Source: an uncultured Methyloversatilis sp.
Lineage (GTDB): Bacteria > Pseudomonadota > Gammaproteobacteria > Burkholderiales > Rhodocyclaceae
Assembly: GCA_964555165.1 (NCBI GenBank)
Contig: CAZKRN010000040.1
Location: 1 to 30,916, forward strand
Reading direction: 5' to 3'
Length of the DNA: 30,916 nucleotides
Shown: positions 356 through 30,916 of the stretch, piece after piece
How positions within the stretch are numbered: the stretch's first letter is position 1
Layout of the letters: the number at the start of each line of letters is the position of its first letter
Notes under the pieces: generated by a model
Told to the model about the DNA's origin: nothing
Seen by the model: only the letters and a program-made list of their open reading frames with translations
The model's database searches: none
Program-made: the position numbers and the translations under genes

Positions 356-388
356 AAAAAGGCCGCGAGGGGTACTCGCGGCCTTTTT
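356..388. terminator. Rho-independent terminator, bidirectional in form (A5-GGCCGCGAG-gggta-CTCGCGGCC-T5)
   Basis: Perfect 9-bp GC-rich stem with a 5-nt loop, flanked by an A-tract on the left and a T-tract on the right. No convincing CDS ends just upstream on either strand. Confidence 0.6.
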
Positions 389-2012: not shown

Positions 2013-2019
2013 CGCGGCA

Positions 2020-2065
2020 GGCGGCGGTCGCGCCGCCCGTTCCCGCCCGCGTCGTCGCGGGCGGG
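2020..2065. terminator. Two GC-rich hairpins between convergent genes (GGCGGCG-gtcg-CGCCGCC and CCCGCCCGCG-tcgt-CGCGGGCGGG)
   Basis: Perfect 10-bp stem and 7-bp stem seen in sequence between the aminotransferase stop (2012) and the cbbR stop (2101). No clear U-tract, so the terminator function is only inferred. Confidence 0.35.
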
Positions 2066-2100
2066 CTCCTTGCCCGGGAGGCCGCGGTGGAACGCCGCCG

Positions 2101-3096: not shown

Positions 3097-4933
<1,837 letters not shown>

Positions 4934-8710: not shown

Positions 8711-8788
8711 CGCCCGAGACCCCAAACGGCGCAGCGCCACACAGAGGGCACGCGCATCAGGACATTCACATCGACGGAGGAGAGAATC

Positions 8789-9874: not shown

Positions 9875-9978
9875 CGCCCTTCTCCCCTCTCCCGCATCGG
9901 CGGGAGAGGGGCCGGGGGTGAGGGCACGGCGCTGCGCGCCACGCTCCCGCGCTGACGCAGGCGAGGGTTTGAAGAATC
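9873..9978. repeat. GC-rich composite palindromic intergenic element (REP-like), copy B, between cbbF and cbbP
   Basis: Starts at the cbbF stop codon (cTGAcgccc). Left arm 'CCCCTCTCCCGCATCGGCGGGAGAGGGG' is a perfect 12-bp hairpin. Right arm is degenerate relative to copy A. Same flanks (GACGCCCTTCTCCCCTC ... GGCGCTGCGCGCCAC ... GGCGAGGG(T/A)TTGAAGAA). Confidence 0.65.
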
Positions 9979-10003
9979 GCATCAAGATCGAAAGGATTGT
10001 TCC

Positions 10004-10882
10004 ATGTCCGTGAAACACCCCATCGTCGCCATCACCGGTTCGTCCGGTGCCGGCACCTCATCGGTCACACGCACCTTCGAGAACATCTTCCGCCGGGAAG
10101 GCGTGTCCGCCGCCGTCATCGAGGGCGACAGCTACCACCGCTACGACCGCACCGAAATGAAGAAGGCGATGGCGGACGCCGAGGCCGGCGGACGCCCGCA
10201 CTTCAGCCACTTCGGCGAAGACGCCAACCTGTTCGCGGAGCTGGAACAGCTCTTTCGCGACTACTCGGAAAGCGGCACCGGGCGCAGCCGCAAATACCTG
10301 CACAACGACGAGGAAGCCGCGCCCTTCCAGCAGCCGGCCGGCACCTTCACGCCCTGGGCGCAGCTGCCGGAAAGCGAACTGCTGTTCTACGAGGGACTGC
10401 ACGGCGGCGTGAAGACCGAACATGTTGATGTATCCCGGTACGCCGATCTGCTGATCGGCGTGGTGCCTGTCATCAACCTCGAGTGGATCCAGAAGATCCA
10501 CCGGGACCGCAGCACCCGCGGCTATTCCACCGAAGCCGTGACCGACGTCATCCTGCGCCGCATGCACGACTACGTGCACTACATCTGCCCGCAATTCACG
10601 CGCACTCACATCAACTTCCAGCGCGTGCCGGTGGTCGACACCAGCGACCCCTTCATCGCGCGCACGATTCCGACCGCCGACGAAAGTCTGGTGGTGATCC
10701 GCTTCGCCAATCCGCGCGGCTTCGACTTCCCCTATCTGCTCAGCATGCTGCACGACTCCTGGATGTCGCGCGCCAACACGCTGGTGGTGCCCGGCGGAAA
10801 GATGGAACTGGCGATGCAGCTCATCTTCACGCCGATGATCCTGCGTCTGGTCGAACGCCGCCGCCAGCAGCGGGCCGCCTGA
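10004..10882 (+). CDS. cbbP: Phosphoribulokinase
   Basis: 'MSVKHPIVAITGSSGAGTSSV' P-loop and overall PRK/URK family layout (292 aa). RBS AAAGGA. Confidence 0.95.
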   Translation: MSVKHPIVAITGSSGAGTSSVTRTFENIFRREGVSAAVIEGDSYHRYDRTEMKKAMADAEAGGRPHFSHFGEDANLFAELEQLFRDYSESGTGRSRKYLHNDEEAAPFQQPAGTFTPWAQLPESELLFYEGLHGGVKTEHVDVSRYADLLIGVVPVINLEWIQKIHRDRSTRGYSTEAVTDVILRRMHDYVHYICPQFTRTHINFQRVPVVDTSDPFIARTIPTADESLVVIRFANPRGFDFPYLLSMLHDSWMSRANTLVVPGGKMELAMQLIFTPMILRLVERRRQQRAA

Positions 10883-10892
10883 GGAGAGCGCG

Positions 10893-12932
10893 ATGAACGA
10901 CATGAACGCTTCCCTGTTCCTGCGCACGCAGTGCGCCAACGCTCTGCGCGCGCTGTCGATGGACGCGGTGCAGGCCGCGAATTCCGGCCACCCGGGCATG
11001 CCGATGGGCATGGCCGACATCGCCGAGGCGCTGTGGCGCCACCACCTGAAGCACGACCCGGCCGACCCGCACTGGCCGGACCGCGACCGCTTCGTGCTGT
11101 CCAACGGTCACGGCTCGATGCTGCTGTATGCGCTGTTGCACCTGTCGGGCTACGACCTGCCGATGGACGAGCTGCGCCGCTTCCGGCAGCTGCATTCGCG
11201 CACGCCCGGCCACCCCGAGGTCGACGTCACGCCGGGTGTCGAAACCACCACCGGCCCGCTCGGTCAGGGTATCGCCAACGCGGTCGGCATGGCGCTGGCG
11301 GAAAAGCTGCTCGCCGCCGAATTCAACCGGCCGGGCCATACGGTGATCGACCACCGCACCTGGGCGTTCGTCGGCGACGGCTGCCTGATGGAGGGCATCA
11401 GCCACGAAGCGTGTTCGCTGGCCGGCACCTGGCAGCTTTCCAAACTGGTGGTGTTCTACGACGACAACGGCATTTCCATCGACGGCGATGTAGGCGGCTG
11501 GTTCACCGACGATACGCCTGCGCGCTTCGAAGCCTATGGCTGGGCCGTGGTGCGCCATGTCGACGGCCACGACCCGGTGGCGCTGGACGCCGCCATCGAC
11601 ACCGCGCTGACCAGCGACCGGCCGGTGCTGGTCTGCTGCAGGACGCGCATCGGCCAGGGTTCGCCGAACCGCGCCGGCACCGCCAGGGCGCACGGCGAGG
11701 CGCTGGGCGAGGCGGAGATCGCGCTCACCCGCGAAGCGCTGGGCTGGCGCGCCCCACCCTTCGACATACCGGATGCACTGCGCGACGCCTGGTCGGCAAG
11801 GGAAGGCGGAGCGAGCGCCCACCGCGCCTGGCAGCAGCGCTTCGACCACTACGCCAGGGCCTTTCCCGAGCTGGCCGCCGAACTGCGTCGCCGGCTGCGG
11901 CGCGACGCGCCGCTCGCTTCGGACGCACTGCGCGCGCTCGAAGCCGCCTGCGAAGCCGCCGAAGCGCGTGCCGCCGCGGTCGCCACACGCAAGGCCTCGC
12001 AGGACTGCCTGCACATCGTCGCGCCGTCGATGCCCGAACTGCTCGGCGGCTCGGCCGACCTCACCGGCTCCAACCTGACCGACTGGAAGGGCCACCGGCC
12101 GCTCAAGGGAGAGGGCACCGGCAACCACGTGCATTACGGCGTGCGCGAATTCGGCATGGCGGCGGTGATGAATGGCGTGGCACTGCACGGCGGCTACCGG
12201 CCCTTCGGCGGCACCTTCCTCACCTTCTCCGACTACGCGCGCAACGCCATCCGCATGTCGGCGCTGATGAAGCTGCCGGTCACCTATGTATTCACGCACG
12301 ACTCGATCGGCCTCGGCGAGGACGGCCCCACCCACCAGCCGGTCGAGCACGCGGCCAGCCTGCGGCTCATTCCGGGGGTAGACGTCTGGCGGCCGGCCGA
12401 CGCCACCGAAACCGCAGTGGCCTGGCGCGCGGCACTGCGCCGTGGCGCCAGTCCCGATCCCGGCCCGACCTGCCTGCTGCTGTCGCGCCAGGCGCTGCCG
12501 CACGCCGGCGACGGCACGCCGCGCATCGACGACATCGCGCGCGGCGGCTACGTGCTGCGCGCACCGCGCGACGAACAGGTGTGCCTGATCGCCACCGGCT
12601 CCGAAGTCGCGATCGCGCTGCGCGCCGCCGAAGAGCTGGCCGCCGAAGGCATCGCCGCGCGCGTGGTGTCCATGCCCTGCGTCGAGGTGTTCGAGCGGCA
12701 GGAGGAGGACTGGCGCAGGACGGTGATTCCGCGCCACCTGCCGCGGCTGGCCATCGAAGCCGGGCGCACCGCGATGTGGTGGAAGTACGTCGGCGAACGG
12801 GGCGATGTGGTGGGGCTGGACCGCTTCGGCGAATCGGCGCCCGCCGCCCGGCTGTTCGATCTGTTCGGCCTGACGCCGCCGGCAGTCGCCGCGCGGGCGC
12901 GCGCGCTGCTCGCTGCGGGCGAACGCGCATGA
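10893..12932 (+). CDS. cbbT: Transketolase
   Basis: 679 aa. 'GHPGMPMGMADIA', 'GDGCLMEGISHEA', 'THDSIGLGEDGPTHQPVEHAASLR' are TPP-binding and transketolase motifs. RBS GGAGAG. Confidence 0.95.
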   Translation: MNDMNASLFLRTQCANALRALSMDAVQAANSGHPGMPMGMADIAEALWRHHLKHDPADPHWPDRDRFVLSNGHGSMLLYALLHLSGYDLPMDELRRFRQLHSRTPGHPEVDVTPGVETTTGPLGQGIANAVGMALAEKLLAAEFNRPGHTVIDHRTWAFVGDGCLMEGISHEACSLAGTWQLSKLVVFYDDNGISIDGDVGGWFTDDTPARFEAYGWAVVRHVDGHDPVALDAAIDTALTSDRPVLVCCRTRIGQGSPNRAGTARAHGEALGEAEIALTREALGWRAPPFDIPDALRDAWSAREGGASAHRAWQQRFDHYARAFPELAAELRRRLRRDAPLASDALRALEAACEAAEARAAAVATRKASQDCLHIVAPSMPELLGGSADLTGSNLTDWKGHRPLKGEGTGNHVHYGVREFGMAAVMNGVALHGGYRPFGGTFLTFSDYARNAIRMSALMKLPVTYVFTHDSIGLGEDGPTHQPVEHAASLRLIPGVDVWRPADATETAVAWRAALRRGASPDPGPTCLLLSRQALPHAGDGTPRIDDIARGGYVLRAPRDEQVCLIATGSEVAIALRAAEELAAEGIAARVVSMPCVEVFERQEEDWRRTVIPRHLPRLAIEAGRTAMWWKYVGERGDVVGLDRFGESAPAARLFDLFGLTPPAVAARARALLAAGERA

Positions 12933-18783: not shown

Positions 18784-19746
18784 TCAGCGACGCCGGCACA
18801 GTAGCACGCCACCCAGTGCCAGCGCGAAACCGGCCATCTGCAGCGGTGCCAGCCGCTCGCCGAACAGCAGCGCCGCCTGCGCGGCGGCCAGCGGCGGCGC
18901 CAGCAGCACGAGCACACTCACCTTCGCCGCCGAACCGCGGCGCACCATCCACACCAGCAGCGTGCTGCCGATGGCGGACAGGCCGAGCACCGCCCAGGCC
19001 AGCGCCGCCCACAGCGCCGGGCCCGGCACCCACAGCGACTCGCCGAGCGCCAGCGCGATCACCAGGCAGACCAGCGCACCGCCGGCATTCTGGATGGCGC
19101 TCGAACTGAACAGATCCGCAGCGGCAATCGAACTCTTCTGCACCAGCGTGCCGGCAGTGATGCCGGCCACTGCCACCAGCGCCACACCGACCACCAGCGG
19201 CGACAGCGCCTCCGGGCCGACGCTGGCCAGCCGTGGCGCCAGCACCAGCACGACGCCCAGCGCGCCGGCCAGCAGACCGCCCCAGAAATGGCGACCCAGC
19301 GGCTCGTCGAACAGGCGCTGCGCGATCAGCGCGGTGAACATCGGCTGCAGCGTGGCGAGCAGCGCCATCACGGCCGGCGACAGCCCGTGTGCCACCGCCC
19401 AGTAGCCGCCGCCCATGTACACACCCTGCAGCAGCGCCCCGGCCAACAGGTGTTTGGGCCACTGCGCGCGCGCCGGCCAGGCGACACGCAGCACGCCGGC
19501 AATGGCCGCGTACATCAGCGTGGTCAGCGTGAAGCGGGCGAGCAGGAACAGCGCCGGGTCGGCGACACCGTCAATGGCCCGCGCGACGATGAAGCCGGTG
19601 GACCAGACGAGGACGAACAGGGCGGGAGCGATGACGGCGAGCACGGGACGGGACAGGAAGCACGAGGGCTGCGAGTCTGCACCGGCGTCGCGGCGATGTC
19701 TTGTCCAGAACCGCAATCCGGGAACGCCGGTACTCGGCGCAGACAC
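18784..19746 (-). CDS. EamA/DMT-family transporter (two EamA repeats)
   Basis: Strongly hydrophobic, roughly 10 predicted TM helices, with duplicated 'LxxxxLxWGxxF'-type segments ('PALFVLVWSTGFIVAR', 'AGGALVCLVIALALGESL'). The ORF-track start is GTG 19746. The true start is probably an internal GTG near 19644 ('VLAVIAPALF...'). Start uncertain. Confidence 0.7.
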   Translation of the reverse strand: MSAPSTGVPGLRFWTRHRRDAGADSQPSCFLSRPVLAVIAPALFVLVWSTGFIVARAIDGVADPALFLLARFTLTTLMYAAIAGVLRVAWPARAQWPKHLLAGALLQGVYMGGGYWAVAHGLSPAVMALLATLQPMFTALIAQRLFDEPLGRHFWGGLLAGALGVVLVLAPRLASVGPEALSPLVVGVALVAVAGITAGTLVQKSSIAAADLFSSSAIQNAGGALVCLVIALALGESLWVPGPALWAALAWAVLGLSAIGSTLLVWMVRRGSAAKVSVLVLLAPPLAAAQAALLFGERLAPLQMAGFALALGGVLLCRRR

Positions 19747-19788
19747 CTTCCGCCCCCCCGCGTCGCGGCCAGACCAGCCGGATCGCCG

Positions 19789-20826
19789 TCAGCCGTCGCG
19801 GCGAGCCACGACCACCTCGGCCCCGGCCGCGGCTTCGTCCAGCGTGATGGAGAGCGGAAGGAAGGCCTCGATCACCTTCACCACGGTACGACAGTGCGAC
19901 GAAACCGTCGTGCACCGGAACCGCGAACCACCCGCCAGCGAGGCCGGGAGCATGATCTGGTCGGCAAGATGTTCACCCACGGGCGCCGTACCGGCCAGAT
20001 AGGCGCGTACCTGGCGCACCAGCGCGACCGCGACCAGCGCCGCCGGTCGGCCGCGTTCGCCGAAGGCCGAGAAGACCTCGGTGGTTGCGTCGCTCGCTAT
20101 CGTCATCTGCAGTACGTTTCCCGGTCCTTCGTTGGCTGGCAAGAGACGGATGTCGCTGCCGATGTCGGGCAATTGCCCGGCCAGGGCGCGGCTCACGGCC
20201 TCGATTTCGCGGCGTGCGACGTCGGCCGGTACGGCAGCGACGATGGACTCGACCCGGGCACCGCGCAGTGTTCCCCGCTCAAGCAGATGCAATGGATCCA
20301 GCCGGGCGACGGGCACCGTGCGGGCGACCAGCCGCCCGCCCCCGGCCGGGTAGAAACCGTGCCTGGGCACGTCGATATCCACGGACGCACCGATGGCACG
20401 CACGTGCGGCACCCAGGCGCGCAGAAGAAAGTCCGCCGTGGGCGCCGCACTGTTGTGCGTGCCACCGCTGATCTCGACCGTGGACGGCGCGTCGGCATGC
20501 CAGAGCGCAGGCAACAGGGTCTGCAGCACCAGCGTCGTACTGCCCGCCGAGCCGATGGCGAATCGATAGTCTCCGCCGCGCACCCGTCCGGGAACGAAGG
20601 TCAGCGCCTGCGACCCCGGCTCAAGCCCGCTGACGCGCGCGCCGCAGATTTCGGCCGACGCACCGACGGCCACCATATGCTGCCTGAGCAGTCCGGGGCG
20701 CGGGCGTCCGGCGCGGATGCGCGTCATGCGGAAGGGGCGTCCGGTGACCATGGACAGGGAAAGTGCGGTACGCAGAATCTGCCCACCCCCTTCGCCGACG
20801 GATCCATCGAGTTCCAGCATGTCCAT
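19789..20826 (-). CDS. rtcA: RNA 3'-terminal phosphate cyclase
   Basis: 'MDMLELDGSVGEGGGQILRTALSLSMVTGRPFRMTRIRAGRPRPGL', then 'EISGGTHNSAAPTADFL' containing the catalytic His of the RtcA family. One nt separates it from the rtcB stop. Confidence 0.9.
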   Translation of the reverse strand: MDMLELDGSVGEGGGQILRTALSLSMVTGRPFRMTRIRAGRPRPGLLRQHMVAVGASAEICGARVSGLEPGSQALTFVPGRVRGGDYRFAIGSAGSTTLVLQTLLPALWHADAPSTVEISGGTHNSAAPTADFLLRAWVPHVRAIGASVDIDVPRHGFYPAGGGRLVARTVPVARLDPLHLLERGTLRGARVESIVAAVPADVARREIEAVSRALAGQLPDIGSDIRLLPANEGPGNVLQMTIASDATTEVFSAFGERGRPAALVAVALVRQVRAYLAGTAPVGEHLADQIMLPASLAGGSRFRCTTVSSHCRTVVKVIEAFLPLSITLDEAAAGAEVVVARRDG

Positions 20827-20827
20827 G

Positions 20828-22039
20828 TCAGCCTTTCACACAGACGATCTGGCTGAGCGTATGGACGACTTCCACAAGCTCGCTCTGGGCCGCCATCACG
20901 GCATCGATGTTCTTGTACGCCATCGGAATCTCGTCGATCACATCGGCGTCCTTGCGGCATTCGACATGCGCCGTCGCCTTGATCTGGTCGTGCACCGAAT
21001 AGCGTCGCTTCGCCTCGTTGCGGCTCATGGTGCGCCCGGCACCGTGACTGCACGAACAGAACGACTGCTCGTTGCCCAGACCGCGGACAATGAAGCTGCG
21101 CGCACCCATGGAGCCGGGGATGATGCCGAGTTCGCCGCGCCTGGCCGATACCGCACCCTTGCGGGTGACCAGCAGGTCGACGCCGAAATGCTCTTCCCGC
21201 TGCACGTAGTTGTGATGGCAGTTCACGGCCTCCACGTCGGCGCGGAAGGGTTTTCCGATTACCGCGCGTGCGGCATCGACGACATGCGCCATCATCACGG
21301 CACGGTTGCGCCGCGCGAAATCCTGCGCCCAGCCGACCGCCTCGACGTAGTCATCGAAGTGCGCACTGCCTTCTTCGAAATAGGCCAGATCGCGGTCGGG
21401 CAGGTTTGCGATGTGTTGCCTCATGTCCTGCTGCGCCAGTTCGATGAAATGGCTTCCGATCGCATTGCCGACGCCACGGGACCCCGAGTGCAGCATGAAC
21501 CACACCTGCTGCGCCTCGTCGACACACACTTCGATGAAGTGATTGCCGGTACCCAGGGTACCCAGGTGCTTGCGGTTGTTCGTGTTGCGCAGACGGGGAT
21601 GCTTTTCGGCCAGACTGTCGAATCCCTGCGCAAGCGCGCCCCACATGGCATCGACTGCGGGAGGCGGCGTGTCCCACGCGCCCTTGTCGCGTCGACCGCG
21701 ACCGACCGTGCGGCCGTGCGGCACGGCGCGCTCGATCGCGCTGCGCAAGGCAAAGAGATTGTCCGGCAGGTCCGAAGCGGCGAGCGTGGTGCGCGCAGCC
21801 ATCATGCCGCAGCCGATATCCACGCCGACCGCGGCGGGAATGATGGCCCCCTGCGTCGGAATCACGCTGCCTATGGTCGATCCCTTGCCCAGATGCACGT
21901 CAGGCATCACCGCAAGATGACCGAATATGAAAGGCATGCGCGCAGTGTTCATGAGTTGGCGACGGGCTTCCTCTTCCACCGGCACACCTTCGGTCCACAT
22001 CTTGATCGGCTTTCCGCCGCTCACTTCGAGTATCTGCAT
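20828..22039 (-). CDS. rtcB: RNA-splicing ligase RtcB (3'-phosphate/5'-OH ligase)
   Basis: 'MPDVHLGKGSTIGSV', 'DIGCGM', 'NHAGRxxSR-like CSHGAGRTMSR' and 'HNYV' are RtcB metal and GMP-binding motifs. Start at ATG 22039 ('MQILEV...') with AAGGA RBS. The ORF-track start at 22126 is an upstream extension. Confidence 0.92.
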   Translation of the reverse strand: MQILEVSGGKPIKMWTEGVPVEEEARRQLMNTARMPFIFGHLAVMPDVHLGKGSTIGSVIPTQGAIIPAAVGVDIGCGMMAARTTLAASDLPDNLFALRSAIERAVPHGRTVGRGRRDKGAWDTPPPAVDAMWGALAQGFDSLAEKHPRLRNTNNRKHLGTLGTGNHFIEVCVDEAQQVWFMLHSGSRGVGNAIGSHFIELAQQDMRQHIANLPDRDLAYFEEGSAHFDDYVEAVGWAQDFARRNRAVMMAHVVDAARAVIGKPFRADVEAVNCHHNYVQREEHFGVDLLVTRKGAVSARRGELGIIPGSMGARSFIVRGLGNEQSFCSCSHGAGRTMSRNEAKRRYSVHDQIKATAHVECRKDADVIDEIPMAYKNIDAVMAAQSELVEVVHTLSQIVCVKG

Positions 22040-22122
22040 GATCCTGTCCTTTGTGCCGACCGAGGGCTTCGTGCCCCCGGCCCCGCTGCCCCATGCAGCG
22101 GGGCTCACTACGATCGCGGGCG

Positions 22123-23262
22123 TCAACCCGCCTTTATGGTCACCAGTCCGTCCAGCACCTGGTCGAGGCCACCGAACACGGATATCCGGTCGATACGCTC
22201 GGCCACCCGCTCCAGCGTCTCCAGCTCCTTCAGGCGCAAGGCGGTCGGGTTGTCCTCCATGACCTTGGCCGTGTTCAAGAGCGAACGGGTCGCGGCGGTT
22301 TCCTCGCGGCGCCGTATCACATTGGCCTGGGCCGACTTCTCGGCCTCGACCACCTGGGCCAGGATGGTCTTCATCTCGCCCGGCAGCACGATGTCCTTCA
22401 CGCCCGCGCTGTGCAGTTCGATGCCGAATCCGGCCATCCGCTTCAGCACATGTGCATTGACCACATCATCGATCAACTGCTTGTTCTCCAGCAGCTCGTC
22501 GAGCGTGCGGGTGCCCACGGCCTCGCGCAGTCCGAGCTGCAGTTCGCGGTACAGATGCTCTGCAGGACGGGCCAGCTTCTCGTGCGCCTGCAGCACGTCG
22601 GTGTAGCGCCAGGTCGCGGAAAGATTGATGCGCAGCCCGACCTTGTCGCGCGACAGGATTTCCTGCCCGCTCACCTCCATGCTCTGCAGGCGGGTATCCA
22701 CCAGTTCCACCTGCACATCGCGGTTGAAGCGCCAGAACGCCTCGACACCGGACGGCGTCAGTCGCTGGATGCAGCCGTCCTTCCGGAGCAGGCCCACGTG
22801 GTAGGGCGGAACCTGGACCACGAGGATGCCAGCGATGCCCAGCACGGGTCGACCACGCAAGGACGGCTGCAGAAGGTGGCTGGCAAGCGAAGCCGGCACC
22901 GCATCGGCTTCGCGCAGATCGACCCGTTCGAGTCGGTGGGTGGTCAGGCCCGACCACATCACGCGCCGCGAACCCGGCGGCAGCACCTCGACCAGCACAT
23001 CGTTCTCGTAGCGCAGACCCGCCTGATCCTCGCCCAGCACGAAATCGTGAAAGTGCATGCGGGCCTGTTCAGGTTCGCGGGCCAGCAGGTAGTCCACAAC
23101 CGCAAAGTCGACGTAAGGCTGTTCGGCCGACACGGTCTGTACCGAAAGGCGACGCAACGGATTCCAGAACACATAGCGGCCGGGTTCGAGCACGCGCTCG
23201 AAGTCTCCGTCGCGCAGCAACACGCCGCGTTCGTTCTTCTTCACCACATGACGCTTCAACAT
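22123..23262 (-). CDS. SPFH/band-7 (slipin-like) domain protein with a roughly 200-aa N-terminal region of unknown function; no N-terminal TM segment
   Basis: C-terminal half 'SRDKVGLRINLSATWRYTDVLQAHEKL...GTRTLDELLENKQLIDDVV...GIELHSAGVKDIVLPGEMKTILAQVVEAEKSAQANVIRRREETAATRS' is a typical SPFH core plus a coiled-coil tail. ATG 23262 is preceded by GGGGAGAAGAG. It is the first gene of the sigma54-promoted rtc operon. Confidence 0.75.
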   Translation of the reverse strand: MLKRHVVKKNERGVLLRDGDFERVLEPGRYVFWNPLRRLSVQTVSAEQPYVDFAVVDYLLAREPEQARMHFHDFVLGEDQAGLRYENDVLVEVLPPGSRRVMWSGLTTHRLERVDLREADAVPASLASHLLQPSLRGRPVLGIAGILVVQVPPYHVGLLRKDGCIQRLTPSGVEAFWRFNRDVQVELVDTRLQSMEVSGQEILSRDKVGLRINLSATWRYTDVLQAHEKLARPAEHLYRELQLGLREAVGTRTLDELLENKQLIDDVVNAHVLKRMAGFGIELHSAGVKDIVLPGEMKTILAQVVEAEKSAQANVIRRREETAATRSLLNTAKVMEDNPTALRLKELETLERVAERIDRISVFGGLDQVLDGLVTIKAG

Positions 23263-23492
23263 TTCTCTTCTCCCCAAGTGATACCGGTCATCACCGGCCC
23301 GGCGAACCCGCTGGCGACCCGCGCGGGGAGGCAGGCAACTGCAGACCGTGGCCCTAGGGCGTCGCGACGTGCGCGGCGATCGCGGACAGGTGCTGCCGGT
23401 CATCTGCCTTGCCGCATGGGCGGTCATGCTGGCTGGCCGGGCCGGCGTCGGCTGCTTGCGCGAGCCGCGACCGGCGGGTATTGCAACAACAG

Positions 23493-23640
23493 CTACAGGA
23501 GCAGGAGTCGAACCTGCGACACACCGCTTTCGCGGCTGCTCTACCTCTGAGCTATCCAGAAGGGCGTGCGGGGAATCGAACCCACGCGAACTCGCCAGAG
23601 CACGCATCCAGATCGCATTCACGGCTGCGGCATGCGCGCT
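23493..23640 (-). ncRNA. tRNA-like element(s) in the rtc operon leader (candidate Y-RNA / tRNA-mimic module)
   Basis: Minus-strand reading: '...GCGTGGGTTCGATTCCCCGCACGCCC | TTCTGGA-TA-GCTC-AGAGGTA-GAGC-A-GCCGCGAAAGCGG-TGTGTC-GCAGG-TTCGACT-CCTGC-TCCTGTAGC'. Perfect D-arm (GCTC/GAGC) with A14 and G18G19. Perfect T-arm (GCAGG/CCTGC) with a TTCGA loop. The anticodon arm is replaced by a CCGC-GAAA-GCGG tetraloop hairpin. A second, bulged T-arm-like hairpin (GGGTTCGATTCCCC) lies immediately 5'. No acceptor stem satisfying tRNA rules was found, so this is not a canonical tRNA gene. Confidence 0.4.
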
Positions 23641-23730
23641 GACAACAGGCACGAACCCGGTCATCGCGCACCAGAGGGCCTGAACACCCGTCTCGTGGGC
23701 ACTTGCAGTGAAGTGCGATCACAGCCTCTT

Positions 23731-23746
23731 CAGCCAGATGCGTGCC
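23731..23746 (-). promoter_or_regulatory. Sigma-54 (-24/-12) promoter of the SPFH-rtcB-rtcA operon
   Basis: Minus strand reads TGGCACG-catc-TGGCT, against the consensus TGGCACG-N4-TTGCW. GG and GC are at the correct 10-nt spacing, with a single mismatch at -14. Lies about 470 nt upstream of the SPFH start, opposite rtcR, whose product is a sigma54 activator. Confidence 0.55.
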
Positions 23747-23771
23747 AGGTCAAAATTTGCTGCGAAGAAGG

Positions 23772-23823
23772 GGGGCAACATATTGATTGGAAATGTGTTT
23801 ATCTCTTCATGTGGGTTGTTGCC
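23772..23823. promoter_or_regulatory. Inverted repeat GGGCAACA-N36-TGTTGCCC upstream of the sigma54 promoter; candidate RtcR upstream activating sequence
   Basis: 8-bp perfect arms, seen in sequence, about 30-90 bp upstream of the -24 element on the activator side. Classical enhancer position for bEBPs. A second dyad GCACTT-GCAGTG-AAGTGC at 23698-23715 lies in the transcribed leader. Confidence 0.35.
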
Positions 23824-23886
23824 CTGCGCATCCATGCCGACCATTGATAGAATTCAGTATCGCTACTTATATTTCTGGATAGCCTT

Positions 23887-25476
23887 GTGAAACGCATCGT
23901 GGTAATCGGCTTTCTCGGTACCCAGCTCGACTACGGCGGCCGGGGCAGTCAGCGTTGGGAGAAATGGAGACCCACCGTAAGCCTCTGCCAGCAACCGGAT
24001 CTGGTCGTGGGCCGGCTGGAGCTGCTGCACGATGCACGCAGCCGGGGCCTGGCCGAACGGGTGAAATCCGATATCGCATCGGTGTCGCCCGAAACCGACG
24101 TCAGGCGTGTCGAGCTCGAGTTGCGCGACCCGTGGGACTTCGAGGAGGTCTATACCGCCCTTCATGACTTCGCACGTGGCTACGCCTTCGACGGAGACAC
24201 GGAGGACTATCTGATTCACATCACCACCGGTACCCACGTTGCGCAGATCTGCTGGTTCCTTCTGGCGGAGTCGCGCTACATGCCGGCGCGCTTGTTGCAG
24301 ACCTCGCCGCCGCGCAAGAAGGACGGTGCCGACCCGGCCGGGCGTTACGAGGTGATCGATCTCGATCTGTCGCGCTACGACAAGATCGCCCAGCGCTTTC
24401 GTCGCGATCACGACGACAACCAGAGCTTTCTCAAGTCCGGTATCGCGACACGCAACAGCGACTTCAACGCGATGATCGAGCAGATCGAGCGCGTGGCGGG
24501 CGTATCACGTGCGCCGATGTTGCTGGTCGGCCCGACCGGCGCGGGCAAGTCCTTTCTTGCCCGACGCATTTACGAACTCAAGCGCTCTTGTCAGCAGCTC
24601 GCCGGTGCGTTCGTCGAAGTGAACTGCGCGACGCTGCGTGGCGATTCGGCAATGTCCGCGTTGTTCGGTCACGTCAAGGGCGCGTTCACCGGAGCCCAGG
24701 GCGATCGCGCCGGGCTGCTGCGCGCGGCCGACAAAGGCCTGCTGTTCCTGGACGAGATCGGAGAGCTTGGCGCGGACGAACAGGCCATGCTGCTCAAGGC
24801 CATCGAAGACAGGCGCTTCCTGCCCTTCGGCGGCGATCGCGAAACGAGCAGCGACTTCCAGTTGATCGCCGGCACGCACAGGGATCTTCGTCTGTGGGTG
24901 GAACAGGGACGCTTCCGCGAAGACCTCTACGCACGGATCAATATGTGGACCTTCGATCTCCCCGGCCTGTCGAGGCGTCGCGAAGACATCGAGCCCAACC
25001 TCGACTTCGAACTTGAGAAGTTCGCCCTGGAGCACGGGCGGCAGGTGCGATTCAACGCCGAGGCACGCCGTCGCTTTCTCGCCTGGGCCACCTCGGCCGA
25101 CGCGATCTGGCGTGGCAACTTTCGCGAACTCGGTGCCGCGGTCACCCGCATGGCAACGCTCGCCCGCAGCGGGCGCATCACGGAAGAACTTGTCGTCGAA
25201 GAGCTCGCGCGTTTGCGTACAAGCTGGGCGGCGCCGGCCGTGCAGGATCGTGTGGCCACCGTACTGGGCAGCGCCGCCGACAGACTCGACCTGTTCGATC
25301 GTTGCCAGCTTGATACCGTGCTGCGGGTCTGCAGCGACTCTGCCAGCCTGTCCGAAGCGGGGAGAAGGCTGTTCTCGGAATCGCGGCAGGCCAAGAAGCA
25401 GGCGAACGACGCCGACCGCCTGCGCAAGTATCTGGCGCGCTTCGGCCTCGACTGGGAGGCGGCCTCGCGCCGCTGA
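23887..25476 (+). CDS. rtcR: RtcR: CARF-domain, sigma54-dependent AAA+ transcriptional activator
   Basis: N-terminal 'MKRIVVIGFLGTQLDYGGRG' (CARF/Rossmann-like as in E. coli RtcR). Central 'LLVGPTGAGKSFLARRIY' Walker A, 'GAFTGA' sigma54-contact motif, 'LLFLDEIGEL' Walker B, 'RFREDLYARIN' R-finger region, C-terminal HTH. GTG start at 23887. Divergent from the sigma54 promoter. Confidence 0.9.
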   Translation: MKRIVVIGFLGTQLDYGGRGSQRWEKWRPTVSLCQQPDLVVGRLELLHDARSRGLAERVKSDIASVSPETDVRRVELELRDPWDFEEVYTALHDFARGYAFDGDTEDYLIHITTGTHVAQICWFLLAESRYMPARLLQTSPPRKKDGADPAGRYEVIDLDLSRYDKIAQRFRRDHDDNQSFLKSGIATRNSDFNAMIEQIERVAGVSRAPMLLVGPTGAGKSFLARRIYELKRSCQQLAGAFVEVNCATLRGDSAMSALFGHVKGAFTGAQGDRAGLLRAADKGLLFLDEIGELGADEQAMLLKAIEDRRFLPFGGDRETSSDFQLIAGTHRDLRLWVEQGRFREDLYARINMWTFDLPGLSRRREDIEPNLDFELEKFALEHGRQVRFNAEARRRFLAWATSADAIWRGNFRELGAAVTRMATLARSGRITEELVVEELARLRTSWAAPAVQDRVATVLGSAADRLDLFDRCQLDTVLRVCSDSASLSEAGRRLFSESRQAKKQANDADRLRKYLARFGLDWEAASRR

Positions 25477-25480
25477 CCGC

Positions 25481-25509
25481 GCGAGGCCGGGAGACGGTTC
25501 CTGCCTCGC
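25481..25509. terminator. Hairpin GCGAGGC-N15-GCCTCGC between convergent rtcR and the N-acetyltransferase gene
   Basis: 7-bp perfect stem located 5 nt after the rtcR stop. No strong U-tract. Confidence 0.35.
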
Positions 25510-26715: not shown

Positions 26716-27054
26716 TCACACCTTCTTCACGAATTCCGACTTCAACTGCATCGAACCGAAACCATCGATGCGGCAATCGATGTCGTGGTCGCCCTCGACC
26801 AGGCGGATGTTCTTCACCTTGGTGCCCACTTTCAGCACCGAAGAACTGCCCTTCACCTTCAGGTCCTTGATCAGCGTGACGGTGTCGCCGTCCTGCAGCG
26901 CATTGCCGTGGGCGTCTTTCCACACCCGCTGTTCGTCGCTGGCGGCGGTCGCGGCGGGGCTCCATTCGTGGCCGCACTCGGGACAGACGAGCTGGGCGCC
27001 ATCCTGGTAAGCGAATCCGGAATTGCATTGCGGGCAGGGAGGAAGGGTGCTCAC
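26716..27054 (-). CDS. phnA: PhnA-family zinc-ribbon protein (YjdC/PhnA)
   Basis: '[31 protein letters not shown]' is a Cys4 zinc ribbon. The C-terminal '[55 protein letters not shown]' is PhnA-like. GTG start overlaps the upstream stop (GTGA). Confidence 0.85.
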
Positions 27055-27659
27055 GGGTGTCCTTGGAAAGAGGGGGTTGTGGTCTGTTGCGCTACCGCGT
27101 ACGGCAACAGCTTCTGCACGATAGCGAAGAACGTCAGTGTCGCCTGGTCGCTCTTGTCGGAGTCGACGCGCAAGGCAAACAGGTCGCGCACCTTCTGGTA
27201 GAAGCGCTGTTCCGAGGCACGGATGTCCCGGATGCGCGCCAGTATTTCATCGAAGTGGTCCGGCCGGCCATCCGGGTTCTTCAGGCGCTCGTCATCCAGC
27301 GCGAAGCCCTTGAGCAGGTATTCCTTGAGGACTGCGGGCGCCTAGCGGCGGAACTGCACGCCGCGCGGTGAGCGCACCTGATAGCCCACGGCGAGGATGG
27401 CGTCGAGGTTGTAGAGCGCGACCGGGCGCTTCACCTCGCGTGAACCTTCGATCTGAACTACCGAGGAATCCTCGGTAGTTGCCTCGCGACTCAACTCCGC
27501 ATCTTCAAAGATGTTCTTCATATGCAGGCCGACGTTGTCGGTCGTCACATCGAACAGCTCCGCCATTTCCCGCTGCGTGAGCCAGACGGTCTGATCCATG
27601 GCCCGCAACTTGATCTGGCTGCGCCCGTCTTCGGTCAAGTAGAGAATCAGTTCGCTCAT
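27054..27659 (-). pseudogene. RhuM-family (virulence protein RhuM / Fic-associated) gene interrupted by an in-frame amber codon and C-terminally short
   Basis: N-terminus 'MSELILYLTEDGRSQIKLRAMDQTVWLTQREMAELFDVTTDNVGLHMKNIFEDAEL...ALYNLDAILAVGYQVRSPRGVQFRR' then TAG (27344-27342). It continues in the same frame with '[57 protein letters not shown]...' to TGA at 27053-27051. RhuM proteins read '...SHRGTQFRQWATQRLREYLIKGF', so the amber replaces a conserved Trp (TGG to TAG). Total 201 codons, against about 330 in full-length RhuM. Confidence 0.6.
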
Positions 27660-27892
27660 GATGTTGTTTGCGGTACAGGTTCTGCTGCAATCACGGCGTG
27701 GGTTCGGCGGCGCGTCGCCGCCGCGATTGAAGCTGTTGCGTGCGTGCAGCCAAGCTCAGGCATGCGTTGTTCGACGGTCAGAATGCACTGAAACCTGTCG
27801 AGCAAATCGACACATGCGAAATTCGTGTTTAAAAACACGTCGAAAATCGACACGTCTTCCGGACGTGTCGATCACGTCGACGCGTTCCGCGC
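27660..27892. promoter_or_regulatory. Palindrome-dense intergenic region between fic (3' end) and the RhuM-like gene (5' end); putative promoter/operator
   Basis: CGTGTTTAAAAACACG perfect 16-bp palindrome (27826-27841). CGACACG-tcttccgga-CGTGTCG (27852-27874). Repeated AAATCGACAC half-sites (27807-27816, 27845-27854). Lower GC than flanks. Confidence 0.4.
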
Positions 27893-28969
27893 TCAACTGG
27901 CCAGTTCGTTGAACAGGGCTTCGTTGATGTAGTACTTCTCGCGGCCATGCTTCTGTTCGCGCAGAATGCCCAGCCCGGCAAGCGTCTGCAGGTAGGTCGA
28001 GGCGGTCTGCCGCTTGGCGATGCCTGCTTCGACGACGAACTGGATCTTGGTGTACGGGTGCCGGAAGATGACCTCGACCAGATCCTTGCTGTAGATCGCC
28101 GGCGCTTCGGTCTGCACCCGTGCGCGCACACTTTCCATCAGGGCACGGATCCGCTGCACCTGGTCGTGGGTCTGCTGCGCGGTCGATTCGATGGCGCGCA
28201 GCATGAACAGAATCCAGTTTTCCCAATCCTGCGACTCGGTGACGCGGCGCAAACCTTCGTAGTAGGCCGCACGGTTGGCGATGATGTAGCGCGACAGGAA
28301 CAGAACCGGAATGTCGAGCAGCCCCTTTTCGACCAGATAGAGCAGATTGATGATGCGCCCGGTACGGCCATTGCCATCCGGAAACGGGTGGATGGCCTCG
28401 AACTGGTAATGCATCACCGCCATCTTCACCAGCGGGTCTACACCGTCTTCGGCGTGGATGAACTGTTCGAGATTGCCCAGCTTGTCGCGGATGACGGCCT
28501 CGCCGACCGGCGGGGTATAGATCACCTGGCCCGCGTCGTTCTTCAGCGCAGTACCCGGAATCGCCCGGATGCCCAGTTCGGTCTGCTTGATCAGGCGGAC
28601 GATTTCGACGAACAGATTGGTCGTCAGCGGCCGTGCCTTCAGCGCCTGAAAGCCGTGATAAAGCGCTTCGCGGTAGCGCAGCACCTCATTCGTGTGCGGA
28701 TCGCTCTTGCCTTCGGGATCGGCATCGGCCCGATACAGCTCATCGTTGGTGGTAACGATGTTCTCGATCTCGGACGACAGACGGGCTTCCTGCAGCGCGA
28801 TGCTGCTGATCAGCATGCCCTGGTTCGGGATCTGTGCCGCCAGTCCGCGCAGGTTGGCCAGCACACGATTTGCGCTGATCGCCTGCTTCAGAACGGCCTT
28901 GGTTTCGAGTTCGACCGGCGGGGGAAGCGAGGGCAGGTCGTTGTAGGGCTGCGCGCGATCGAACGGCAT
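27893..28969 (-). CDS. Fic-family protein (AMPylase), class II with an N-terminal inhibitory helix
   Basis: Active-site motif 'HPFPDGNGRTGR' matches HPFx(D/E)GNGRxxR. N-terminal 'SSEIEN' matches the autoinhibitory (S/T)xxxE(G/N) motif. 358 aa with a C-terminal wHTH-like extension ('YLQTLAGLGIL'). Confidence 0.88.
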   Translation of the reverse strand: MPFDRAQPYNDLPSLPPPVELETKAVLKQAISANRVLANLRGLAAQIPNQGMLISSIALQEARLSSEIENIVTTNDELYRADADPEGKSDPHTNEVLRYREALYHGFQALKARPLTTNLFVEIVRLIKQTELGIRAIPGTALKNDAGQVIYTPPVGEAVIRDKLGNLEQFIHAEDGVDPLVKMAVMHYQFEAIHPFPDGNGRTGRIINLLYLVEKGLLDIPVLFLSRYIIANRAAYYEGLRRVTESQDWENWILFMLRAIESTAQQTHDQVQRIRALMESVRARVQTEAPAIYSKDLVEVIFRHPYTKIQFVVEAGIAKRQTASTYLQTLAGLGILREQKHGREKYYINEALFNELAS

Positions 28970-29168
28970 TCAGCGACCCTTGAACGAAGACGTGTCTAAA
29001 AATAGCTAACTTTTAGACATATGGCGAGTGATCTGTATAGAAATCGGCATTTTCTATACGTATGCACAGTGGCCATTGGCCTGCCACGGGTTCTGCCGTC
29101 TCGGCCAAACTTCACCAACGAGCCTCCGCAAAACCCGGGGCGATTCAGTCTGCGTCGTCAAGGGTTTG
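28970..29168. promoter_or_regulatory. fic upstream region with two dyads (GTCTAAAA-N9-TTTTAGAC at 28984-29008; TATAGAAA-N7-TTTCTATA at 29026-29048)
   Basis: Perfect 8-bp inverted repeats in an AT-rich context immediately upstream of the fic start codon. Candidate operator or promoter elements. Confidence 0.4.
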
Positions 29169-30101
29169 TCAGGCAACTCCGTTGTATGTCTCTGGGACAG
29201 CAATGATTGGGCCAGTGAGTGCTTTGGTCGGATATATCAAGAGCAACACGTTGTAGGGCGTTTTAAAGGCCTCGCCCAGACACTCATGGGTGTCTCCGTT
29301 GCGGTCGCTGTAAAGAAGCTGCGTTGGCCTGGTCATTTTCCTTCCGATCGGCAGTAGGTCGCCCAAGGCGTGCGAAACGTCGATACGCTCAGCTACTGGA
29401 ATACCAAATTGTTGTGCGAATGAAGGCGAAGCCTCAATGCGACGCACCTCTGCGTACGGCGGAAGACCCGGTAGCAACTGGATTGGCTCCAAGATGTAGA
29501 GGAGGCATGCTCGGTGATTAGTTCTCGCGAATTCTCGAGCCGACGCATATACCGAAGCACCAAATTTCTTGGAAAGCGCGATAGGTGTCTTTACGGCCAT
29601 CGGCATGTCCGAGGCCATCTCCTTATAGGCGGTCCCCTGAAACAGCGCGTAGCGTGCAAAATTGTTAGCCTCGCGCTCAAACTGGTCGGCGACGGTTGGG
29701 GCCAAGGTCTGCTCGCAGTCTTGGAAGAGCCGAAACACTTTCCGATGGGTCGGCAATTCATGGTGCCCCGTCTCATGCAGTTTTAGAAAAGTCTGCTTAG
29801 ACGCGCCGACGCTGTCATCGATGTGGATGATTTGCTCGTTCGCGTCATAGAGACCCAGAACCTTGGACAGGGCGGACTTGAGCGTCTGCGCCGCCTCGAC
29901 GGTTTTCCTTTTCACGAACGCTAGGAAGGCGGCAGCGTCAAACATCTCCTTGGGTGCCACACGCAGCTTCGCTGCACTGAGGATGTCCTCAACCGGCGTG
30001 GGAAAGCGCCCCCATGCTGATGCCCGATTAAGCAGATCCTGTGCCTGTCGTTCGACAGCGGCCAGTTCAAAGGATTGAAGACTGCTGTCGTCGGGCTTCA
30101 T
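29169..30101 (-). CDS. ImmA/IrrE-family (M78) zinc metallopeptidase
   Basis: 'FLKLHETGHHELPTH' contains HExxH. About 310 aa. Start overlaps the stop of the upstream XRE gene (ATGA), the typical HTH-ImmA / CapH-CapP-like arrangement. Confidence 0.8.
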   Translation of the reverse strand: MKPDDSSLQSFELAAVERQAQDLLNRASAWGRFPTPVEDILSAAKLRVAPKEMFDAAAFLAFVKRKTVEAAQTLKSALSKVLGLYDANEQIIHIDDSVGASKQTFLKLHETGHHELPTHRKVFRLFQDCEQTLAPTVADQFEREANNFARYALFQGTAYKEMASDMPMAVKTPIALSKKFGASVYASAREFARTNHRACLLYILEPIQLLPGLPPYAEVRRIEASPSFAQQFGIPVAERIDVSHALGDLLPIGRKMTRPTQLLYSDRNGDTHECLGEAFKTPYNVLLLIYPTKALTGPIIAVPETYNGVA

Positions 30102-30454
30102 CAGGTGCGTTTCCTCGAGCGGATATGCTTAAGAAAATCTAGGAGTTCAGCTTCCTCGTCAGGGCTCAGGTTGTGCTCGGCAAACGTCGCGATTCGGCCG
30201 TGCCGCTGCCCTTCACTGCGCGTGGCAGCGGCAGGCAGGTAGCCCGCGAGTTCCATCAGCGTGATGTACTCGATTCTGTAGATCTCAGCCAGCTTATTGA
30301 GGATGGTCGGACTTGGCTGCTGGATCTTCCCATTCTCAAGCTGACTAAGGTAGGCGTTCGAAACTTCCTTGCCACTGGCCTCTTCGACCTGCCTAAGCGA
30401 CATCTTCCGATCGTTACGGATAGAGGCGAGGTACTGCCCTAAGGTGACTTTCAC
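30101..30454 (-). CDS. XRE-family helix-turn-helix transcriptional regulator
   Basis: 'LGQYLASIRNDRKMSLRQVEEASGKEVSNAYLSQLENGK' is a Cro/CI-type HTH. 117 aa. Apparent GTG start at 30454. Translationally coupled to the ImmA-like gene. Confidence 0.8.
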   Translation of the reverse strand: MKVTLGQYLASIRNDRKMSLRQVEEASGKEVSNAYLSQLENGKIQQPSPTILNKLAEIYRIEYITLMELAGYLPAAATRSEGQRHGRIATFAEHNLSPDEEAELLDFLKHIRSRKRT

Positions 30455-30667
30455 TGCTTGCCCCGAGTAGCGACAGCACCCGTGACCTTCACGACTGCCC
30501 GCTTTTCACGAGTTTAGCTTCCGCCGCTAAATTTTCAACGCGCGCTTAGCATGCTTGACAAACTTAGCATGCGTTCTTAAAGTTGCACCAAGTGCTCAGC
30601 AGCATCCCGCAGAGAGAGCGCGAGACCCAAGTGCGCGGCTTGTCGCGCGATCGAATGGAAGAGATAT
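30455..30667. promoter_or_regulatory. Divergent promoter/operator region: tandem CTTAGCATGC repeats overlapping a plus-strand sigma70-like promoter (TTGACA-17-TAAAGT)
   Basis: CTTAGCATGC at 30544-30553 and 30563-30572, each containing the palindrome AGCATGC(T). TTGACA at 30555-30560, a 17-nt spacer, TAAAGT at 30578-30583, oriented toward the small ORF at 30668. The XRE gene is transcribed divergently from the same region. Confidence 0.45.
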
Positions 30668-30865
30668 ATGAGCGATCAATTTGAAGAAGACGTAGAGGAC
30701 GTCTACGCCGCTGTGTCGAGTGGGCGTCGCGTTCGTGAGCATGGGCCATTCGGTATCCGGATAGGCGATCAATCCATGCAGTTCGTACCGAAGGTTGTCG
30801 ATGATCCGGTGGTGACTGGCATCCAAATCTTGGCGGTCGCTAACGCACGTCCGGCGAACGATTGA
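30668..30865 (+). CDS. Small hypothetical protein (65 aa), acidic N-terminus
   Basis: ATG preceded by GGAAGAG about 7 nt upstream and by the promoter above. No recognisable motif. Another ATG with an open frame begins near 30907 and runs off the window. Confidence 0.3.
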   Translation: MSDQFEEDVEDVYAAVSSGRRVREHGPFGIRIGDQSMQFVPKVVDDPVVTGIQILAVANARPAND

Positions 30866-30916
30866 GCTTGCCCCCGAAAATCATATCCCTTGCTGAGTGA
30901 TTCACAATGCAGGCAA

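Follow-up and report, generated by a model that had tools for sequence, protein, structure and literature searches.

Co-oriented XRE-ImmA, Fic and RhuM genes next to phnA in a Methyloversatilis contig probably belong to three juxtaposed modules of a mosaic defence island

The last 3.8 kb of contig CAZKRN010000040.1 from an uncultured Methyloversatilis sp. (assembly GCA_964555165.1; "the window" below is the whole analysed stretch of 30,916 nucleotides) carry an XRE-family repressor gene, an ImmA-type peptidase gene, a Fic gene and a RhuM-family gene in close succession on the minus strand, which raises the question of whether these genes work as one operon. Such a unit, a protease-gated toxin or abortive-infection module, had been proposed in the initial annotation, made from the sequence alone. 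Here, genes were identified from the list of open reading frames (ORFs) with a Pfam scan, PADLOC and NCBIfam, and the window was compared with related contigs and metagenome loci (designated L001, L012, L100, etc.). Overall, these comparisons make it quite probable that the segment forms the left part of a mosaic defence island, with three independent modules lying side by side rather than a single operon. The first would be a Type II bubA-bubBD-bubE operon with divergent CapH/CapP-type regulators, the second a SoFic cassette made of a palindromic 5' flank, the Fic gene and a hairpin-rich 3' flank, and the third a decayed RhuM gene. All components are known systems, so the locus is a new instance of these. 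From right to left, the features are:

30863-30916, plus strand: left terminal repeat of an IS3-family insertion sequence (IS), starting TGAGCTTGCCCCCGAAAA...; the contig ends inside it
30668-30862, plus strand: bubA', codons 1-65 of a Type II Bub ubiquitin-like gene (ORF to 30865 including the stop)
30511-30583, both strands: predicted back-to-back divergent sigma-70-like promoters (promoter scan)
30101-30454, minus strand: CapH-like XRE-family repressor, 117 aa (Pfam HTH_3 9.1e-11, PADLOC capH 1.1e-7)
29169-30101, minus strand: CapP-like (IrrE/ImmA, M78) metallopeptidase, 310 aa (Pfam Peptidase_M78 5e-6, PADLOC capP 1e-11)
28970-29116, minus strand: SoFic 5' flank, 147 nt, with two perfect 9-bp inverted repeats
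27893-28969, minus strand: SoFic, 358 aa, an intact class II Fic AMP-transferase (Pfam Fic_N, Fic, SoFic-like_C)
27759-27892, minus strand: SoFic 3' flank, three consecutive hairpins/palindromes rich in TCGACA/TGTCGA
27081-27659, minus strand: RhuM-family pseudogene (PDC-S05), delimited from Pfam RhuM, PADLOC, an alignment to the L012 RhuM and blastn breakpoints

The XRE, ImmA and Fic genes were found where, and on the strand on which, they had been annotated. The first two overlap by ATGA and are thus directly adjacent, as in CapH/CapP pairs; both are intact, i.e., full length relative to their families, and the capH profile is matched over nearly its whole length. Across a survey of 80 metagenome loci with ImmA homologues, an XRE gene always lies directly upstream of ImmA wherever the sequence exists. 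For Bub genes, the informative set was the 13 loci whose ImmA is ≥65% identical and which extend 3.2 kb or more past XRE; 12 of them encode BubA, BubBD and BubE, all three divergently upstream. At 59–64% ImmA identity, 18 of 27 loci have at least one Bub match (tblastn), and five sampled loci without a Bub match still carry ThiF, JAB or Multi_ubiq genes at that place (Pfam). SoFic directly follows ImmA in only one of the 43 loci with enough downstream sequence (L020, which is of the same lineage as the window), the other genes found there being heterogeneous (integrase, BrxL, HsdR, HipA, AbiEii, PIN and others) and about half of them on the opposite strand. This synteny suggests that the XRE-ImmA pair belongs to the divergent Bub operon and not to SoFic.

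Type II Bub operons (formerly 6E.2/DUF6527) comprise BubA, the E2-E1 fusion BubBD, and BubE (Corbett laboratory preprint, PMC11601596), and were recognized here by BubA (a ubiquitin-like protein), BubBD and BubE (DUF6527/PF20137) without a JAB peptidase. CapH and CapP accompany 168 of 544 Bub operons (31%, PMC11601596), and these regulators are known to sit upstream of, and on the opposite strand to, their operon, ubiquitin-like operons included (bioRxiv 10.1101/2022.04.27.489752). The gene set of the window's relatives, together with their CapH and CapP genes, matches this description. The window differs in keeping only bubA codons 1-65 ahead of the IS, the rest of the operon being off the contig. 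These lie on the plus strand, where the initial annotation, which had placed all genes of the segment on the minus strand, missed both the bubA' ORF (30668-30865) and the IS repeat.

The bubA' start lies 213 nt from XRE on the opposite strand, and its ORF has a weak Pfam Multi_ubiq match (5.5e-4) and is identical to the N-terminus of the 249-aa BubA of L013. The DNA is 100% identical to L001 and L002 up to 30863, where the IS repeat begins and provides the TGA that terminates the ORF. Matches to the TGAGCTTGCCCCCGAAAA... sequence (83–90%) occur in 48 Burkholderiales-type plasmids; two of these were examined, and there an annotated IS3-family transposase gene lies 12 to ~40 nt from the end of the match. 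Comparison of the junction with the intact sequence of L012 and L013 shows that an IS3-family element interrupts bubA after codon 65. The same junction recurs in contigs of several other samples, which break ~30 nt into the repeat, and its presence in independent samples argues that the interrupted allele is real. The insertion disrupts the effector operon and would leave the regulator pair functionally orphaned.

What the operon looks like when intact can be read from relatives. Contigs 100% identical to window positions 29015-30863, found by exact look-up of the ImmA and XRE proteins, run on into intact bubA, bubBD and bubE, which in relatives encode 249 aa (Multi_ubiq), 395 aa (DUF6791 and ThiF) and 154 aa (PF20137), respectively. 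The full set is present in L001, L002, L012, L013 and L020, whose regulator region is 95–100% identical to that of the window. Repeated independent inactivation of Bub in this lineage was considered and rejected: a suspicion of decay in L012 had arisen from gene calls (BubA of 213 aa, no BubE), and tblastn recovers BubA, BubBD and BubE there, all full length.

Between the two divergent genes, a predicted plus-strand promoter (TTGACA-17-TAAAGT, 30555-30583) faces bubA and a predicted minus-strand promoter (TTGAAA-16-TAAACT, 30538-30511) faces XRE, the scan returning 3 sites vs. 1.2 expected. An operator-like core, GCTAAGTTTGTCAAGC (30553-30568), and two copies of the repeat CTTAGCATGC overlap the -35 boxes, and this operator/promoter block is invariant in 12 loci with ImmA 65–100% identical to that of the window. 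Within the window the core has a single occurrence, at the bubA/XRE promoters, with no second copy found near SoFic or RhuM. The CapH-like XRE protein probably binds this conserved operator, which overlaps both back-to-back promoters.

As for the peptidase, an alignment of 22 ImmA homologues has invariant HExxH residues at 109-113 (H109-E110-x-x-H113) as well as invariant C129 and E142, located 16 and 29 residues past the second histidine, respectively, a spacing like that of the zinc ligands (H100/E129) and cysteine switch of Thauera CapP. E142 is likely the third zinc ligand, and C129 a candidate cysteine switch. In the AlphaFold model, the C-terminal half has a per-residue confidence (pLDDT) of ~90 but residues 1-153, i.e., the peptidase domain, remain below 50. 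The top Foldseek matches of the model are PprI/IrrE (2.7e-5) and Thauera CapP (7T5T, 8.2e-4), and its C-terminal domain, matching PprI, IrrE and CapP as well as GAF/PAS/LOV folds, is predicted to be GAF/PAS-like.

The window pair thus resembles the CapH and CapP regulators (Lau et al., 2022; homologous to DdrO/IrrE(PprI) and ImmR/ImmA) in several respects: a small XRE helix-turn-helix gene followed by an M78 (DUF955/PF06114) HExxH peptidase gene, a placement ahead of a defence-type operon on the other strand, the promoter region being common to both, a putative conserved operator overlapping the -35 boxes, a candidate cysteine-switch residue, and a C-terminal domain predicted to be GAF/PAS-like. 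It differs in that its similarity to the PADLOC models is weak (capP 1e-11, capH 1e-7), and in that its operon is Bub, interrupted by an IS, and not a cyclic oligonucleotide-based antiphage signalling system (CBASS). By analogy with CapH/CapP, the peptidase may cleave the repressor upon stimulation by single-stranded DNA (ssDNA).

The Fic gene, for its part, is a SoFic homologue. Its product has the core motif HxFx(D/E)GNGRxxR (H194PFPDGNGRTGR205, invariant among the aligned sequences) and, ~125 residues N-terminal of the catalytic histidine, an SxxxEN inhibitory helix motif (S65-S-E-I-E69-N70), as had been read initially from its catalytic and SSEIEN motifs, which identifies it on sequence grounds as a class II Fic protein with an intact inhibitory helix motif. 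Its C-terminal domain is a winged helix (SoFic-like_C). The PADLOC SoFic match spans positions 8-357 of 361 (4e-122), and matches among solved structures include EcSofic (9VJC, 4.5e-116, 52.9% identity) and Shewanella oneidensis SoFic (3EQX, 7.9e-108). There are more than 8000 SoFic homologues, most of them 358 aa long, with ~80% identity over several betaproteobacterial genera and Azotobacter.

The gene therefore shares the Fic_N, Fic and SoFic-like_C architecture of the SoFic single-gene anti-phage system (Millman et al., 2022; PDB 9VJC, 3EQX/3ZCN), as well as the length of EcSofic (358 aa) and intact HxFx(D/E)GNGRxxR and SxxxE(G/N) motifs. It differs from these systems in its score of 502.8 bits against NCBIfam NF046030, slightly under the 550 cut-off for strict equivalog membership, and in having no conserved AS1-like small ORF downstream. 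An AS1-like antitoxin gene was in fact considered at that place and rejected as a conserved gene, the length of the ORF starting in the SoFic 3' flank (27853-27656) being unstable (65 aa in the window; 55, 22 and 16 codons in L013, L100 and L104), and the enterobacterial cassettes L119 and L120 show none that is homologous. Toxicity and defence against T5 are published for EcSofic (PMC12249575), SoFic being toxic upon overexpression and phage protection being known for homologues (PMC12249575; bioRxiv 10.64898/2026.07.09.737422). SoFic also AMPylates EF-Tu (bioRxiv 10.64898/2026.07.09.737422). For the window SoFic, phage protection and EF-Tu AMPylation would be expected by analogy with these homologues.

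Several breakpoints indicate that SoFic moves separately from its present neighbours. Methyloversatilis sp. L100 has a 95% identical SoFic next to gyrB, surrounded by other genes, and its similarity to the window (29116-27759, 91%) covers the gene plus exactly 147 nt on the 5' side and 134 nt on the 3' side. On the other side, the ImmA module matches L021 only as far as 29164, just beyond the ImmA stop codon; together, the two limits place a module boundary between ImmA and SoFic. Homologues at 80–83% identity are found inside type I restriction-modification (R-M) operons without XRE or ImmA, those at 81–83% being arranged as hsdM-hsdS-SoFic-hsdR or between a helicase gene and hsdR. SoFic thus appears from these comparisons to be a separate, self-contained cassette.

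The flanks kept with the gene are rich in palindromes. Upstream, a first inverted repeat at 28993-29019 (TGTCTAAAA-N9-TTTTAGACA) and a second at 29035-29059 (GTATAGAAA-N7-TTTCTATAC) are both perfect over 9 bp, and both lie less than 100 nt from the SoFic start codon; analogous palindromes are found upstream of other SoFic homologues. Published work on homologues has SoFic binding its own promoter through the C-terminal winged helix, and the region bound by the dimer is the 100 bp immediately preceding its own gene (bioRxiv 10.64898/2026.07.09.737422), with which the position of the window palindromes agrees. By analogy, the 28970-29116 interval is likely the SoFic promoter and auto-operator, and auto-repression at the two palindromes would be the most likely control of SoFic here. 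A precedent for such palindromes is CccR of Yersinia pseudotuberculosis, a distantly related toxin which combines a Fic domain with a C-terminal DNA-binding domain and represses itself via inverted 10-bp repeats (PMC9755527). CccR differs in its low similarity to SO_4266 (29% identity over 45% coverage; PMC9755527), its unrelated operator sequence, and in being secreted by a type VI secretion system and targeting FtsZ.

Downstream, the hairpins lie within ~100 nt past the SoFic stop (27793-27890), include an 11-bp perfect inverted repeat (27846-27872), and form the densest TCGACA/TGTCGA cluster of the window (4 sites in 110 nt); this interval is probably the SoFic terminator and the upstream region of the next gene. 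The element is kept after SoFic in L100 (9078-9211) and L104, with related motifs in L105 and L106 (5086-5230), and its association with SoFic extends to unrelated contexts, hsdR being among the genes that come after it. It is also found behind an unrelated 1497-aa gene in L010 (4536-4640), and enterobacterial SoFic plasmids have arrays of ATATGTCGATAAAAT upstream instead. An operator half-site shared by both SoFic flanks was a visual impression for which we found no statistical support: across 17 cassettes, 7-mers shared between the 170-nt upstream and downstream flanks were not significantly above within-locus controls (5 vs. 2.55 ± 2.0 in the window, 11 vs. 6.4 ± 3.3 in L106). Apart from a tRNA-like match at 23493, Rfam detected no known RNA family between 23000 and 30916, the SoFic and RhuM spacers included.

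The third module is a ruin. RhuM sequence is present, as initially annotated (PADLOC candidate PDC-S05, 4e-41), but the gene is not functional: an in-frame TAG (27342-27344), at a codon for Trp in relatives, breaks the reading frame (27659-27051) and leaves an ORF of 27342-27659 on the minus strand. Of the 252 positions of Pfam RhuM (PF13310), the window matches only 1-46 and 50-135, in two pieces split by the TAG, and thus has no full-length uninterrupted domain. The window copy is like the RhuM family (PF13310; PDC-S05) in the N-terminal 190 residues of its frame, which are clearly RhuM (Pfam, PADLOC), and differs in being a pseudogene. Its 3' end is gone, amounting to 40% of the gene or about 140 codons in a global alignment to the 333-aa RhuM of L012. 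In blastn, homology to L012 runs from 30863 down to ~27080 and is picked up again 1.98 kb further, at a point 25 nt upstream of phnA. A base-by-base reading puts the junction at 27080/27081, which leaves 26 nt in front of the phnA GTG, and relative to L012 the ~1.98-kb deletion took the RhuM 3' end along with an ORF of 90 aa and a NERD-domain gene. Carrying both the nonsense codon and this deletion, RhuM is a dead remnant. Full-length RhuM follows SoFic in L012 and L015, and RhuM remnants adjoin an intact SoFic in L100 and L013/L020 as well. Decay proceeded through the nonsense codon and the ~2-kb deletion, the latter also removing the content of the RhuM-phnA interval and the phnA promoter. 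The sequence left of the junction comprises:

27055-27080, minus strand: residual native phnA upstream DNA, 26 nt including an AAGGA ribosome-binding site; also the start of the alignment to L012 12725-13088
26716-27054, minus strand: phnA/YjdM, 112 aa, GTG start (Pfam YjdM 5.4e-35, Zn_Ribbon_YjdM 4.9e-16)

The deletion junction is the left boundary of the island. The initial annotation had set this edge at the phnA start, and the GTGA overlap on which it relied does exist, but it is the out-of-context tail of the truncated RhuM frame entering the phnA ribosome-binding region. phnA itself is the flanking gene and not cargo, and is variable in relatives (beside the island in L012 and L015; absent from L013, L020 and L010). 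Its native promoter region was lost with the deletion, only the 26 nt with the ribosome-binding site being kept; transcription must thus come from the side of the RhuM pseudogene and SoFic, or phnA is silent.

The composition of the segment is atypical, though not uniformly so. Computed along the window, the lower GC noted initially is real: 0.577 over 27081-30863 vs. 0.669 over 1-27054 (z ~ -4.5), below all equal-length stretches in the rest of the window (never < 0.632; mean 0.672, standard deviation 0.021). The accompanying remark that codons were not G/C-ending holds for ImmA, XRE and bubA' (GC at third codon positions, GC3, of 0.63, 0.69 and 0.59), but not for SoFic and RhuM, both of which are host-like with a GC3 of 0.81 (0.80–0.83 for the flanking phnA, NAT and RtcR genes). 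The signal is thus heterogeneous, atypical GC3 being confined to the Bub/CapHP module.

In relatives, the island lies between gyrB and phnA/NAT with variable cargo. L012 has, in order, the gyrB 3' end (89% identical to L100), a deaminase gene, an IS, Bub, CapHP, SoFic, RhuM, the 90-aa ORF, NERD, phnA, FmdA and NAT. The cargo is Bub, CapHP and SoFic, then PHO4, in L013; it includes RhuM plus a nucleotidyltransferase pair in L015; it consists of three unknown genes, SoFic and an HTH-M78 fusion in L100, and of a 1497-aa gene and RhuM in L010. The defence-type, acquired cargo proposed initially is borne out by this variation between the same flanks and by PADLOC recognition. The nearest named genomes are Methyloversatilis spp. 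(76% for the NAT protein, 85–92% DNA identity for conserved segments), and a scan of genome contigs with the NAT protein gave two Methyloversatilis loci, neither with this exact locus. An integrase or tRNA at the island borders was not found: there is no tRNA in related loci or in the window tail, and no integrase was called in L012, L013 and L020. On these sequences, the segment resembles a defence hotspot of the recombination type, situated downstream of dnaA-dnaN-gyrB, more than an integrative element; its right border lies off the contig and is inferred from relatives.

Two of these relatives are worth describing further. L100 (Methyloversatilis sp., GCA_030695445.1) has, at 8001-11620, gyrB, three unknown minus-strand genes, SoFic, the fusion gene (HTH_3 and Peptidase_M78, 347 aa, inserted) and a remnant of RhuM joined directly to a 3' piece of phnA (reading DIDCRIDGF), which suggests an origin from a window-like SoFic-RhuM'-phnA arrangement by further deletion. 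In L010 (positions 42-4535; a Methyloversatilis metagenome-assembled genome), the 1497-aa ORF has no Pfam match and takes the place of SoFic directly upstream of a full-length RhuM, and is a candidate uncharacterised defence gene.

Several points weigh against an arrangement of independent modules, or against parts of it. Published work gives no Bub operon an anti-phage phenotype (PMC11601596), the continuation of this one behind the IS is deduced from relatives, with the far side of the IS and gyrB off the contig, and the peptidase domain of ImmA is precisely where its model is poor (residues 1-153), a profile search of solved structures with ImmA giving no match at E ≤ 0.01. The Bub/XRE-ImmA/SoFic block is contiguous and 95–97% identical in L012, L013, L015-L018 and L020, so that SoFic and the regulators were inherited together within this lineage. 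XRE-ImmA and SoFic are co-oriented across a 200-nt gap without a detected terminator, which makes read-through from the CapH-controlled promoter possible. Lastly, the SoFic of L100 has the HTH-M78 fusion gene next to it, downstream, which hints that such neighbours may recur. Separately, in the metagenome loci L028 and L029, whose ImmA is 79% identical to that of the window, a Fic-domain gene only distantly similar to SoFic (28% identity) lies ~2.9 kb past bubE, in a position and orientation unlike those of the window, probably a coincidental clustering of defence genes.

The likeliest alternative is a lineage-specific co-option: the modules would have separate origins, but the CapH-repressed promoter would read through capH-capP into SoFic, so that DNA damage or phage-derived ssDNA would raise SoFic, which after the IS insertion would be the regulators' only remaining output. 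Neither strand has a detected intrinsic terminator between 26900 and 30916, the spacer hairpins having no U-tracts, the block is kept in at least seven related contigs, and the regulators are intact (310 and 117 aa) despite the broken operon. The block's conservation is, however, explained by recent common ancestry at 95–100% identity, and the adjacency is absent outside the lineage, the single case among 43 loci belonging to it. Moreover, SoFic has its own conserved 5' flank with operator-like palindromes, homologues bind their own promoter, and the CapH operator was not found near SoFic. We thus regard co-option as rather unlikely. About as doubtful, when all its parts are taken jointly, is a more elaborate proposal: SoFic would travel as a compact, self-regulating ~1.36-kb cassette (27759-29116) with palindrome arrays on both sides, the 5' pair serving as auto-operator and the 3' TGTCGA/TCGACA array, resembling the upstream arrays of enterobacterial SoFic, letting it control or insulate the next gene (RhuM here, hsdR in type I R-M operons), while CapH/CapP read-through would make it DNA-damage-inducible, the orphan regulators being re-used after the IS destroyed Bub.

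Much less probable is the single operon proposed initially, in which ImmA would cleave XRE and release expression of Fic, together with RhuM. The four reading frames are indeed co-oriented and close, all four families are defence-associated in PADLOC, and SoFic is a toxin requiring tight control, but the ImmA/XRE clade is tied to Bub or E1 operons and not to Fic, and SoFic occurs without XRE or ImmA in R-M operons. Module borders, moreover, fall between ImmA and SoFic (29164 and 29116), RhuM is a pseudogene, and the operator is found at the bubA/XRE promoters only.

ImmR/ImmA pairs classically control prophages and integrative and conjugative elements (ICEs). The segment is nevertheless very improbably the remnant of a degraded element of this kind, with XRE-ImmA as its ImmR/ImmA-type immunity module and Fic and RhuM as moron cargo: such pairs, the frequency of RhuM and Fic genes among prophage cargo and the IS at the edge would fit, but neither an integrase or tRNA attachment site nor phage genes for structure or replication turned up in the window tail, L012, L013 or L020, only 13 SoFic relatives were found among 2.9 million viral contigs, and the conserved neighbour of this ImmA clade is a ubiquitin-like conjugation operon.

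Three further observations concern the window outside the mosaic island. First, between NAT and an EamA gene it has an rtcR/Band_7-rtcB-rtcA block (19600-25500); compared with L013 and L010, L013 has a GGDEF/EAL gene at this place and other relatives nothing comparable. This block being variable too, the whole region downstream of gyrB is plastic, beyond the 3.8 kb flagged initially. Second, a tRNA-like element (23493-23561, minus strand; Rfam tRNA 40.3 bits, gathering threshold 29) sits in the GC-poor gap that separates rtcR (23887-25476, plus strand) from the divergent Band_7-rtcB-rtcA operon, and precedes the Band_7 start by ~230 nt. It has canonical D and T arms, an anticodon loop of only 4 nt and acceptor stem mismatches, and ARAGORN assigns it no anticodon. 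It may be a tRNA mimic linked to RtcR/RtcB RNA repair, the tRNA-like YrlA RNAs of rsr-rtcBA operons offering a comparison. Third, a ~98-nt sequence at 14876-14973 matches four tandem/inverted copies (79–94%) just upstream of NAT in L010 (9451-9817), with one copy each in L009, L013 and L020, and looks like a dispersed repeat of the repetitive extragenic palindrome or miniature inverted-repeat transposable element type.

Taken as juxtaposed modules, these genes carry a caution for annotation: a co-oriented XRE-ImmA pair beside a toxin gene invites a protease-gated reading, whereas the regulators belong to the divergent operon opposite, and this holds generally for CapH/CapP-type pairs in defence islands. 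The locus would also provide a Type II Bub operon knocked out naturally by an IS while its regulators stay intact, alongside sister lineages that keep Bub intact, a comparison made useful by Bub having no demonstrated phenotype. In Methyloversatilis-like bacteria, a defence hotspot is now mapped between gyrB and phnA, and candidate operators for the CapH-like repressor and for SoFic are defined and directly testable.

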